45,119 nt of DNA from Candidatus Buchananbacteria bacterium (GTDB taxonomy: Bacteria; Patescibacteriota; Patescibacteriia; Buchananbacterales; UBA6539): contig JAFGGX010000018.1 of the NCBI GenBank assembly GCA_016930315.1, positions 1 to 45,119 of the forward strand. Reading direction: 5' to 3'. Position numbers and translations under genes: made by a program. Positions 24,042 to 25,492 of this stretch are shown here, one piece after another; within the stretch, counting starts at the first letter, position 1, and each line of letters begins with the position of its first letter. The notes beneath the pieces were generated by a model that saw nothing but the letters and a program-made list of their open reading frames with translations, made no database searches and was not told the DNA's origin.

Positions 24042-24323
24042 ATGGCAAAAATGACCAAGTCTCAGTTATTAGCCGTTTTGGCTGAGAAAACTGAGCTAAG
24101 TAAGAAGGACGTCGCTAATTTTATGGATAAAATGACGGAACTTGCTTACGTAGAAGTCAAAAAGAATGGCGAATTTACCATCCCAGGCGTTGGTAAATTA
24201 GTCAAAGTCGACCGAAAAGCAAGAATGGGCCGAAATCCAGCCACTGGCGAAGAAATCAAGATTCCTGCTAAAACTGTGGTGAAGTTCCGAGTTGCTAAAG
24301 CTGCCAAAGACGCCGTATTATAA
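24042..24323 (+). CDS. hup: Histone-like DNA-binding protein HU
   Basis: ARMGRNPATGEEIKIPAK motif; SD AAGGA. Confidence 0.93.
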   Translation: MAKMTKSQLLAVLAEKTELSKKDVANFMDKMTELAYVEVKKNGEFTIPGVGKLVKVDRKARMGRNPATGEEIKIPAKTVVKFRVAKAAKDAVL

Positions 24324-24341
24324 TCTAGTTTAAGGCGAATC

Positions 24342-24369
24342 AAAAGAGGGCTATTTAGCCCTCTTTTTT
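24342..24369. terminator. Bidirectional terminator
   Basis: AAAAGAGGGCTA-TT-TAGCCCTCTTTT. Confidence 0.85.
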
Positions 24370-24382
24370 GTTTTGATAATTT

Positions 24383-24624
24383 TGGTCGGGCTGGTCACGT
24401 CGCTCGCGAGCGACGTGAAGGCTTTATCGTTCCGAATCCATCACCTTATTTAAAAATTTCTTTGTCGGGGTAGCCGGATTTGAACCGACGACCTCATCGT
24501 CCCGAACGATGCGCGCTACCAACTGCGCTATACCCCGGCAGAAAAATTTTAATTTAAAAAATATAAGATGAAAGACGCGCTAGCCAATGGAGTTTATCCC
24601 GACGAATGTCGGGGCTACAGCTCG
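24383..24624 (-). pseudogene. Degenerate outer tRNA-Pro-like gene split around the intact tRNA
   Basis: 5' part CGAGCTG-TA-GC…ATTGGCTA-GCGC-G (24624-24576); 3' part TTCGGAA-CGATA-AAGCC…CAGCCCG-ACCA (24436-24383); acceptor strands pair 6/7. Confidence 0.6.
24465..24537 (-). tRNA. tRNA-Pro (anticodon CGG), CCA not encoded
   Basis: CGGGGTA TA GCGC AGTTGGTA GCGC G CATCG TTCGGGA CGATG AGGTC GTCGG TTCAAAT CCGGC TACCCCG A forms a full cloverleaf. Confidence 0.95.
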
Positions 24625-24638
24625 ATTGTGTCTTTGCT

Positions 24639-24667
24639 AGTTTAACTTTTTTTGTTACTAAAATCAA
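24639..24667 (-). promoter_or_regulatory. Sigma70 promoter for the tRNA locus
   Basis: TTGATT-N17-TAAACT on the minus strand, 14 nt upstream of the outer tRNA-like 5' end. Confidence 0.6.
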
Positions 24668-24799
24668 GCCATTTGTTGTTAAAGAGGTCATTAAATTAGT
24701 CTATATTATTATATTTTTGTCAAGTTTGGGATAATTTTGACCATTGTCTTAATTAAAGGTAAAATGTAATAGCATTTAAAGCTTAAAAATTGCGATTTT

Positions 24800-25492
24800 A
24801 TGGCCGAAATTAACCAATTAGCACATTTAGGCATTATTATGGACGGCAATCGACGTTGGGCCAAAAATAATGGTCTGGCTAGTCTTGTAGGCCATCGCAA
24901 AGGGTATGAAAAGATGAAAGAAGTGGCTAGTTGGTGTATTGAAGCTGGTGTAAAAGTTTTGACCGTTTATGCTTTTTCAACTGAGAATTGGAACCGCTCT
25001 GAGTATGAGGTCAAATATTTAATGGATCTGTTTCGGCTGGTATTAAAAAACGATTTAGCAAAATTAGCCGAGCAGGGAATTAGAGTTAATGTCATTGGTC
25101 AAAAAGAAAGATTGGATGCCGACATCCAAGATTTAATTGCTCAAGCTGAAATCAAAACTAAAAACAATCAGCGTTTGATTTTTAACTTAGCCATTTCATA
25201 CGGCGGTCGGCCGGAAATTATTCAGGCAGTCAAAAAAATCATTGATCAAAAAATTGCAATTGAAAAAATTGACGAAGATTTAATTAAAAAATTTTTGTGG
25301 ACAGATGGCTTACCCGATCCAGATTTAATTATTCGCACTTCCGGTGAACATCGCTTGTCAAACTTTTTAACTTGGCAATCAGTTTATTCCGAATTGTTAT
25401 TTATCGATAAACACTGGCCGGATTTTAGTCAGGCCGATTTACAACAAGCAATTGAGGTGTTTAATAACCGCCAACGTCGATACGGAAAGTAA
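24800..25492 (+). CDS. uppS: Undecaprenyl diphosphate synthase
   Basis: HLGIIMDGNRRWA, YAFSTENWNRS, DLIIRTSGEHRLSNFL, RRYG. Confidence 0.95.
   Translation: MAEINQLAHLGIIMDGNRRWAKNNGLASLVGHRKGYEKMKEVASWCIEAGVKVLTVYAFSTENWNRSEYEVKYLMDLFRLVLKNDLAKLAEQGIRVNVIGQKERLDADIQDLIAQAEIKTKNNQRLIFNLAISYGGRPEIIQAVKKIIDQKIAIEKIDEDLIKKFLWTDGLPDPDLIIRTSGEHRLSNFLTWQSVYSELLFIDKHWPDFSQADLQQAIEVFNNRQRRYGK

Follow-up and report, generated by a model that had tools for sequence, protein, structure and literature searches.

A proline tRNA gene lodged between the parts of another: nested, hairpin-flanked tRNA genes in a Buchananbacteria lineage

The stretch of DNA considered here, 45,119 nucleotides of a Candidatus Buchananbacteria genome (GenBank assembly GCA_016930315.1, contig JAFGGX010000018.1, positions 1 to 45,119) and referred to throughout as the window, carries on its minus strand, at 24383-24667, an intact gene for the transfer RNA (tRNA) tRNA-Pro(CGG), without an encoded CCA, that sits between the 5' and 3' parts of a second tRNA-Pro(CGG). 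The genome that holds the window (G000; other G-numbers designate genomes of relatives, C-numbers contigs and L-numbers extracted loci) amounts to 897 kb in 53 contigs, with 38.5% GC and a marker completeness of 98.8%. The inner gene (24464-24537) is called by ARAGORN and matches the Rfam family RF00005 over model positions 1-71 with 67.9 bits (gathering score 29). It is the one tRNA gene of the window and the sole CGG isoacceptor among the 42 tRNA genes detected in the assembly, which include three tRNA-Pro genes (GGG, TGG and CGG). A sequence-only reading of this stretch had listed a promoter, tRNA-Pro-like halves with remodelled loops, pairing flanks and the complete tRNA; all these elements are present on the minus strand, at the coordinates given here.

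In the direction of transcription, the outer 5' part (24576-24624, recognized by alignment to an intact gene in the relative G017) comprises the acceptor 5' strand and remnants of the D arm, approximately tRNA positions 1-26. It reads CGAGCTG-TA-GC, followed by a GC-rich hairpin module of 25 nucleotides with a conserved tail, which lies in the D loop (24589-24613), and then by ATTGGCTAGCGCG. Next come an AT-rich leader of 38 nucleotides (24538-24575), the inner tRNA and an AT-rich trailer of 27 nucleotides (24437-24463); fold and duplex energy identify the leader and trailer as the 5' and 3' arms of a helix. The outer 3' part (24383-24436, recognized in the same way) holds the anticodon loop and the 3' strand of its stem, the variable region, a palindromic T arm, the acceptor 3' strand and ACCA, in the order TTCGGAA-CGATA-AAGCC, palindrome and CAGCCCG-ACCA (24383-24393). 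A perfect palindrome of 22 nucleotides (24396-24417) stands in place of the T loop, and CAGCCCGACCA, also from this part, occurs once in the whole of G000. Positions 27-31, the 5' strand of the anticodon stem, are absent from the outer gene. With that strand and the T loop missing, the outer halves are unable to form a tRNA. The outer acceptor strands pair at six of seven positions, and the inner acceptor, CGGGGTA/TACCCCG, differs from them at three pairs; the outer gene encodes CCA in its terminal ACCA and the inner one does not, both as the sequence-only reading had it.

A fold of 24335-24635 places the tRNA at the tip of a long stem that is closed by the outer strands, at -105.7 kcal/mol as against -77.6 +/- 4.9 for shuffled sequences (z -5.8; none of 100 as good), an energy that takes in the tRNA itself and a terminator. 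The duplex of leader and trailer, taken alone, comes to -15.5 kcal/mol as against -9.1 +/- 2.2, and seven of 500 dinucleotide shuffles are as good; the ungapped helix that starts from positions -1/73 has 12 pairs. The contention that the flanks pair and hold the tRNA at a stem tip is borne out.

A promoter-like site assigned to the outer (ancestral) gene lies at 24639-24667, with TTGATT at 24662-24667, a spacer of 17 nucleotides and TAAACT at 24639-24644, and it ends about 14 nucleotides ahead of the outer 5' end. Its standing is mixed. The boxes are there, and a similar TTGATT...TA(G/A)ACT arrangement is seen by eye ahead of tRNA-Pro(CGG) in nine related loci (L002, L003, L004, L005, L011, L012, L017, L018 and L020), but the site has eight of 12 consensus matches, counted by eye, and was not listed by a consensus promoter scan with a threshold of nine. 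It is presumably the active promoter of the unit. On the other side, a hairpin with an 11-pair stem and T runs on both sides, picked up by a terminator scan (24342-24367), is likely to be a two-way terminator, serving hup on the plus strand and the tRNA unit on the minus strand. The neighbours are hup itself, encoding HU (a Bac_DNA_binding open reading frame, 24042-24323), the gene for UppS (24800-25492), and genes for an MgsA-type ATPase and a DUF6938 protein.

The older gene and the proline locus in relatives

An intact, CCA-encoding tRNA-Pro(CGG) gene is present in G017, with acceptor strands CGGGCTG/CAGCCCG, and it stands divergent from uppS as in the window (the two UppS proteins are 65% identical over 230 residues); the same plain gene is also found in G003, G014 and G004. 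The outer halves were aligned to the G017 gene with long gaps made cheap. The 5' side scores 32.75 against the 5' half of that gene (shuffles 14.0 +/- 2.8) and the 3' side scores 39.25 against the 3' half (shuffles 16.5 +/- 3.3), with neither score reached in 500 shuffles. Swapped controls are unremarkable: leader against 3' half is equalled by 21 of 500 shuffles and trailer against 5' half by 144 of 500. The tRNA-Pro-like character of both halves is thus confirmed, and at a level far above shuffled sequence. As the halves are arranged in the genome, no second RF00005 match appears in 24300-24700 at E values up to 10, nor does any Rfam family give a credible match to the outer parts up to the same E value. 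On comparison of these sequences, the interpretation of the outer halves as remains of the locus's old CCA-encoding tRNA-Pro(CGG) gene is supported.

No RNA run was listed as containing the stretch. Contigs of four sequencing runs matched the locus only at the conserved tRNA core (from other organisms), apart from one DNA contig of a related strain, and no joints at the locus were reported from the contigs of those four runs. The related-strain contig, from a groundwater run, has the ancestral G at 24622, giving CGGGCTG; the single mismatch of the outer acceptor is therefore a recent change.

Two explanations had been put forward from the sequence: that a second tRNA gene was inserted into the anticodon arm of an older isoacceptor, which then decayed, or that the locus specifies a tRNA-in-tRNA precursor in need of special processing. 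The plain gene beside uppS in G017 and the homology of the halves argue for the former. The latter, taken with a joined outer product, is not supported. In its strict form this would be a true split gene, its inner unit excised as an intron and its outer exons joined into another tRNA-Pro. Although the inner unit does lie in the anticodon arm, the outer gene retains ACCA and the junction helix recalls those that archaeal tRNA precursors form at anticodon introns, the joined halves would have neither the 5' anticodon-stem strand nor the T loop, so that no full cloverleaf could result. The tRNA-intron endonuclease domain PF01974 has no match in the 98.8% complete G000 (a positive control matched in four archaea); an outer partner strand is missing in four of the eight genomes described below; and no bulge-helix-bulge (two 3-nucleotide bulges with a 4-base-pair helix between them) was seen by eye at the junctions in sequence or fold, no dedicated search having been made. 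A split gene is close to refuted. Disrupted tRNA genes with introns at odd positions, and split and permuted genes, are known from archaea and red algae (PMC4090602, PMC3978253). The likeness to them lies in interruptions of the D, anticodon or T region, sometimes several in one gene, and in helices at the junctions. In contrast, their pieces are joined by a splicing endonuclease and ligase, whereas here the interrupted copy gives no tRNA and the interrupting sequence is the working tRNA itself.

Nor is the locus a simple duplication of the attachment-site type, as had been rightly noted: a 5' part also lies upstream, and a mere 139 nucleotides separate the halves. It is very unlikely that the halves are attachment-site scars of an integrase-borne element that has since been deleted. 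Transfer RNA genes are common integration targets, and integrated mobile elements leave partial tRNA genes beside tRNA genes and have done so widely (PMC9897764), but such scars repeat the 3' part with the sequence of the gene itself; here the acceptor stems of the outer and the inner gene are unlike as well, there is no integrase among the neighbours (HU, UppS, MgsA-type ATPase, DUF6938), and two genomes show the pattern at between a quarter and a third of their tRNA genes. In favour of such scars, G035 has a direct repeat of some 170 nucleotides (L008, G035:C4:6197-9269) that takes in the last 16 nucleotides of a tRNA-Pro(CGG) and its trailer. This repeat has the look of either an attachment-site scar or a tandem duplication, and its pattern is unlike that of the nests. 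The proline locus resembles the partial genes of PMC9897764 in having dead pieces beside a working copy of the same tRNA that can mislead annotation. It differs from them in that the pieces lie on both sides in gene order, with no element or integrase between them and up to three layers deep, and in that the working gene is a diverged copy with complementary flanks of its own.

Eight genomes have remnants of a second tRNA-Pro(CGG) beside the working gene: that of the window, G012, G013, G018, G019, G009, G002 and G037, the last of which belongs to another family. In G012, G013 and G018 the outer 5' part extends to the anticodon. After it come a conserved junction rich in GC, a spacer rich in AT and an arm; then the inner tRNA, and beyond it the complementary arm and a matching junction. 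G018 has in addition a second, partial copy of the inner type, with an empty version of the junction element in its anticodon loop. The junction of the window's outer 5' part with its hairpin, scanned for in genome and metagenome contigs, has its sole match in G018's contig. G011 has a compact cluster of five tRNA genes without such flanks.

What the relatives say of the two helices, a comparison that the sequence-only reading had proposed for both, is divided. The flanking stem is kept through compensatory changes. In G018, G013, G012 and G019 the arm and acceptor together form a helix of 21 pairs in which 98.8% of cells are paired; five pairs, of which three lie in the arms, have changed at both positions, and at most two of 500 column shuffles reach these counts (for four sequences). 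Since its pairing persists through compensatory changes, the flanking leader-trailer stem looks functional. The outer acceptor pairing, in contrast, is not conserved: both strands are clear in three of the eight genomes (the window's, G012 and G037), they are unclear in G009, and one strand is missing in the other four, G013 retaining just the last seven letters, G018 lacking the outer 3' part, G019 lacking the 5' part and G002 having the 3' part alone. The window's outer gene is split between positions 26 and 32, those of G012, G013 and G018 at 35-37, and the window's arm sequences are unrelated to those of these three genomes; the proline nest therefore seems to have formed more than once. 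The second D-loop hairpin that G013 and G018 share has lost a different arm in each.

Nesting, paired flanks and encoded CCA

The proline locus is one case of a genome- and lineage-wide pattern. A self-flank test (score of at least 13, flanks of 250 nucleotides, annotated tRNAs masked, swapped halves as the control) finds 11 of 42 tRNA genes in G000 flanked by pieces of themselves, 16 of 47 in G012 and two of 45 in G003, with three, three and no positives, respectively, in the swapped control. The window's own locus is not among the 11, scoring 12 in an earlier, ungapped-leaning version of the test; it was detected by the gap-tolerant alignment. The flanking pieces stand in gene order, 5' parts upstream and 3' parts downstream, and hairpins rich in GC interrupt them in their D, anticodon and T regions. 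Outer 3' pieces that still end in CCA are found in G000 at Pro(CGG), Pro(GGG) and Lys(CTT); at several loci, such as Lys(TTT), Gly(GCC) and Phe, there is a 5' piece alone.

The deepest nest seen is that of tRNA-Ser(TGA) in G012 (L099, G012:C3:112770-113570), which has three layers. In each of the two outer layers a clean split runs between anticodon nucleotides 35 and 36, and the middle unit has arms of its own, as does the innermost one. The junctions of tRNA-Ser(TGA) in G000 (G000:C44:2300-2900) are the same as those in G012, and this nest therefore predates the split of the two genera. The upstream copy at tRNA-His of G012 is identical to the gene in 34 of 34 bases and ends at the first anticodon base, and tRNA-Arg(CCT) of G000 lies in the loop of a GC-rich hairpin that is itself in the D loop of a diverged outer copy.

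The nested look might also arise with no insertion at all, by partial tandem duplications on each side of a gene followed by random loss, a course that has been proposed for mitochondrial tRNA clusters. It finds some footing in the loci with a one-sided piece, in tRNA-Gly(GCC), where the leader ahead of the upstream piece is like that ahead of the intact gene at about nine of 10 bases, and in G018, where a stretch of 80 nucleotides comprising the 3' part of the tRNA and its trailer is present twice. But outer and inner leaders are unrelated at most loci, the window, Gln, Lys(TTT) and Ser(TGA) among them. The outer layers of tRNA-Ser(TGA) in G012 part at 35/36 with neither overlap nor gap, the gene-order positives exceed the swapped ones in each of the three genomes, and the two acceptor stems of the window differ at three pairs. 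This explanation is unlikely.

Nesting goes together with a second property. Let a tRNA gene be called armed if an ungapped helix of at least eight pairs between its leader and trailer starts at -1/73. In G000, 20 of the 42 genes encode CCA and 14 are armed; in G012 the numbers are 23 and 14 of 47, and in G003 31 and 12 of 45. In each genome none of the armed genes encodes CCA (Fisher p 7e-6, 8e-6 and 3e-9, respectively), which makes 0 of 40 armed genes over G000, G012 (loci L072-L100) and G003 (loci L101-L128). There are thus two classes, one with encoded CCA and unpaired flanks, the other without CCA and with a helix of eight to 22 pairs that continues the acceptor stem. One exception, the CCA-encoding Arg(CCT) gene of G000, has GC-rich arms that begin past the CCA and is not counted by the anchored test. 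The genes for Pro (all three), Asp, Asn, Ser(GGA), Ser(TGA), Gln(CTG), Gly(TCC) and Leu(CAG) are armed in both G000 and G012, and the arm sequences differ between the two genomes. Mismatches in the arms are more often G-U than A-C (38 as against 21, p 0.036), an excess that leans towards selection on the transcript.

Nested genes are concentrated in the armed class (eight of 14 armed as against three of 28 unarmed genes in G000, 10 of 14 as against six of 33 in G012). In G003, Pro (three genes), Asp, Ser(GGA), Gly(TCC) and Leu(CAG) are plain CCA-encoding genes, and their counterparts in G000 or G012 are CCA-less, armed and mostly nested; the change accordingly ran from plain genes to genes replaced from within by armed copies.

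RNase III cuts the leader-trailer helices of bacterial ribosomal RNA (rRNA) precursors. The armed genes are like those rRNA helices (PMC10250234) in that both flanks of the mature RNA pair and unite its ends; RNase III is encoded in G000, as is the RNA of RNase P. They are unlike them in flanking single tRNAs, in being confined to CCA-less genes, and in running unbroken from the acceptor stem so that the discriminator base is paired.

Scans for further tRNA genes in G000 added little. A T-arm motif scan for hidden, hairpin-interrupted tRNAs gave one extra site, the outer Lys(CTT) piece, and the intron mode of ARAGORN added two calls, on C11 and C17, of which the one on C11 looked spurious. A tRNA-like gene between two tRNA-Thr(GGT) genes (G000:C36:6275-6353) is given by ARAGORN a four-base anticodon (atta) and no amino acid, and has an Rfam score of 47 bits.

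Palindromes in the loops of other hairpins

The hairpin modules that break up the outer copies have a distribution of their own. The D-loop module of the window recurs in the same place of the D loop in G018 (91% over 44 nucleotides) and again in the D loop of an outer tRNA-Gln copy on G000 contig C46; in G026, G031 and G001 it lies within larger palindromic repeats, away from tRNAs. It was considered as a repeat of the CRISPR kind and rejected, there being no arrays but two copies in G000, each in an outer D loop, and single scattered copies in the other three genomes. Palindromes of about 22 nucleotides followed by (A/G)CCAGCC mark the 3' ends of tRNA units at C42:8826-8847 (after tRNA-Gln(TTG)), C23:7189-7210 (after a tRNA-Asp unit) and 24396-24417 of the window; the window's palindrome has an identical core in G006 and a near-identical one in G033. 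CCAGCC and GGCTGG also make up the junction of the tRNA-Ser(TGA) nest. Far from tRNAs, at window position 2612 on the minus strand, there is a copy of the TCCGCCGAA motif, the start of one of the hairpin families seen in outer tRNA pieces.

One repeat of G000 is found with and without a guest. At C23:35920-35960 and C41:4875-4915 it has a GC palindrome of 20 nucleotides in its loop, which is absent from the copy at C39:12050-12080, and this pair of states is direct evidence for the entry of palindromes into hairpin loops. We read the whole as small palindromes inserting into the loops of hairpin-forming DNA and then decaying, and as surviving in tRNA copies for the sole reason that these were already dead. 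A loosely defined census of GC-rich hairpins placed 37 of 331 within 300 nucleotides of a tRNA and was too noisy to use.

Other structured RNAs of G000 also have extra hairpins. The RNase P RNA (C6:12438-12867, within L031, G000:C6:10938-14367) is 430 nucleotides long as against a model of 367 positions and scores 155 bits; near its 5' end it has a GC-rich hairpin much like that of the outer tRNA-Asp copy, and near its 3' end a long extra one. A T-box-like leader (L037:1959-2291, minus strand, that is, G000:C41:5458-5790), at 35.3 bits and E 1e-4 below its gathering score, is about 110 nucleotides longer than the model and bears the same GC palindromes. Insertion sequences in the rRNA genes of candidate phyla radiation bacteria (PMC11270868) are a parallel, concerning the same broad bacterial group and extra sequence in structured RNA genes; that account differs in dealing with rRNA, and the word tRNA does not occur in its main text.

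Hairpin-forming repeat families are on record in small AT-rich genomes (PMC2800124), and the NTS and SRM hairpin repeats are tied to small GIY-YIG (Ssn) single-strand nucleases (PMC11893778). G000 shares with these many-copy short GC-rich palindromes and a GIY-YIG gene with NTS-like inverted hairpin repeats. That gene (L041:798-1100, minus strand, or G000:C50:11297-11599) encodes 100 residues, scores 55.4 bits and is flanked by inverted hairpin repeats, each with a small inner palindrome, so that it resembles an Ssn nuclease with its repeats. Membership of the hairpins in SRM was tried and dropped: the published degenerate pattern has two hits in G000 as against none to four in 10 shuffles, none of them in 24300-24700, and the modules of the outer halves do not fit it. 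The parts of PMC11893778 covered do not describe the insertion of a palindrome into the loop of another palindrome or into tRNA loops.

How the locus may work, and what follows

We favour, with a probability of about 0.55, the reading that this stretch holds a live, hairpin-flanked replacement gene lying within a dead ancestral gene and using the promoter and terminator of the latter. The stretch would be transcribed as a single unit, of which the inner tRNA-Pro(CGG) would be the one working product. The ancestral CCA-encoding gene would have been split in its anticodon arm, at about positions 26 to 32, by a replacement copy that has no CCA, has a complementary leader and trailer, and depends on the old promoter and terminator; the dead halves would later have been remodelled by GC-rich palindromes landing in the D loop and the T loop. 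Transcription would run from the old promoter to the shared terminator. The helix of leader and trailer (17 to 26 pairs with the acceptor stem included) would then act as a processing stem, to be cut open by an enzyme specific for double strands, most obviously RNase III; completion of the tRNA would fall to RNase P together with a 3' endonuclease and the CCA-adding enzyme, and the outer halves would be left as by-products, presumably non-functional as tRNA. The extra opening step is proposed because leader pairing with the 3' end, extending the acceptor stem, is reported to hinder bacterial RNase P in model substrates (PMC9433436). The armed genes resemble those substrates in the extension of the acceptor stem by leader pairing, and differ from them in that here 10-19 further pairs make up the native state, a conserved one, in a third of the tRNA genes.

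Several observations weigh against this account. It is puzzling, if the outer gene is dead, that its retained blocks are nearly unchanged (10 of 11, 11 of 11 and 12 of 12 bases, by eye in the G017 alignment). The outer copy and arms of tRNA-Ser(TGA) are 80.9% identical between G000 and G012 over 199 nucleotides (the 89-nucleotide tRNA included), coding DNA of these two genomes being about 67-73% identical, and free decay in a 0.9-Mb genome would hardly leave such conservation. It speaks instead for selection acting on the proximal flank, for gene conversion or for a recent origin. A second promoter-like site, TTGGCT-16-TATATT with nine of 12 matches, spans the outer D arm and leader at 24587-24560 and is a possible target of such selection. 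Nests persist in very small genomes (0.9-1.2 Mb). The related-strain contig has no differences in 24540-24621 as against 11 listed in 24622-24850, a weak observation at a depth of 3.2. The account leaves unexplained both the mechanism of insertion and the choice of a gene for the same isoacceptor as its target, and it does not reconcile the D-loop hairpin common to the window and G018 with split points that differ. Finally, the CCA-adding domains PF01743 and PF09249 were not found in the G000 assembly. PF01743 is present in 38 of 40 relatives and in 19 of 19 within the family, so the absence is likely to be an assembly gap. No tRNA-His, tRNA-Trp, tRNA-Tyr or transfer-messenger RNA was detected in the G000 assembly either, and these, together with the CCA-adding domain, probably fall in gaps. 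A role for the outer ACCA that had been built on the missing enzyme was dropped on the same ground.

Much of this would be accounted for if the outer halves were a working, selected shell of the precursor, a closed tRNA-like form, completed by the leader-trailer helix, whose anticodon arm ends in the inner tRNA. Such a shell could aid folding, protect the ends or guide processing enzymes, and its 5' part might supply the -35-like box of the internal promoter at 24587-24560. The fold closed by the outer strands, the near-intact blocks, the tRNA-Ser(TGA) nest with junctions common to two genera and a core more conserved than coding DNA, the persistence of nests in small genomes and, weakly, the undisturbed segment of the related strain all speak for it. 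Yet one outer acceptor strand is missing in four of the eight tRNA-Pro(CGG) genomes (G013, G018, G019 and G002), loci such as Lys(TTT), Gly(GCC) and Phe make do with a 5' piece alone, and between sister genomes the hairpins of the outer halves have decayed in different ways. In G003 there are 12 armed genes and just two nests, so the helix works without a shell, and the five-tRNA cluster of G011 has no such flanks. We regard a selected shell as rather doubtful.

An extension of the replacement reading is more tentative than that reading itself, and its probability is fairly low. The CCA-less armed tRNA genes may be self-targeting replacement cassettes that land repeatedly in the anticodon region of a gene for the same isoacceptor, kill it, take over its promoter and leave shells up to three deep. 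The cassettes may share a mechanism with the palindromes that enter loops, and DNA taken up from relatives may feed the process. If this were true, it would amount to a drive-like turnover of essential RNA genes.

Neither nested tRNA genes nor armed tRNA genes lacking CCA turned up for these bacteria in a search of the literature; as far as could be found, the pattern is undescribed, and it is worth following. In none of the nearest known systems does a working tRNA gene lie, layer within layer, in a dead copy of itself at many isoacceptors. The pattern bears on annotation, since the tRNA pieces and hairpin modules that flank tRNA genes in such genomes can be mistaken for introns, split genes or new RNAs. 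The window locus is a place to seek a process, acting on DNA, by which sequences of hairpin shape come to lie in the loops of other hairpins. For the biology of this lineage of the candidate phyla radiation, the pattern means that tRNA genes turn over in an orderly way, with live copies nested in dead ones, and the two classes of tRNA gene predict a processing route unlike the textbook bacterial one.

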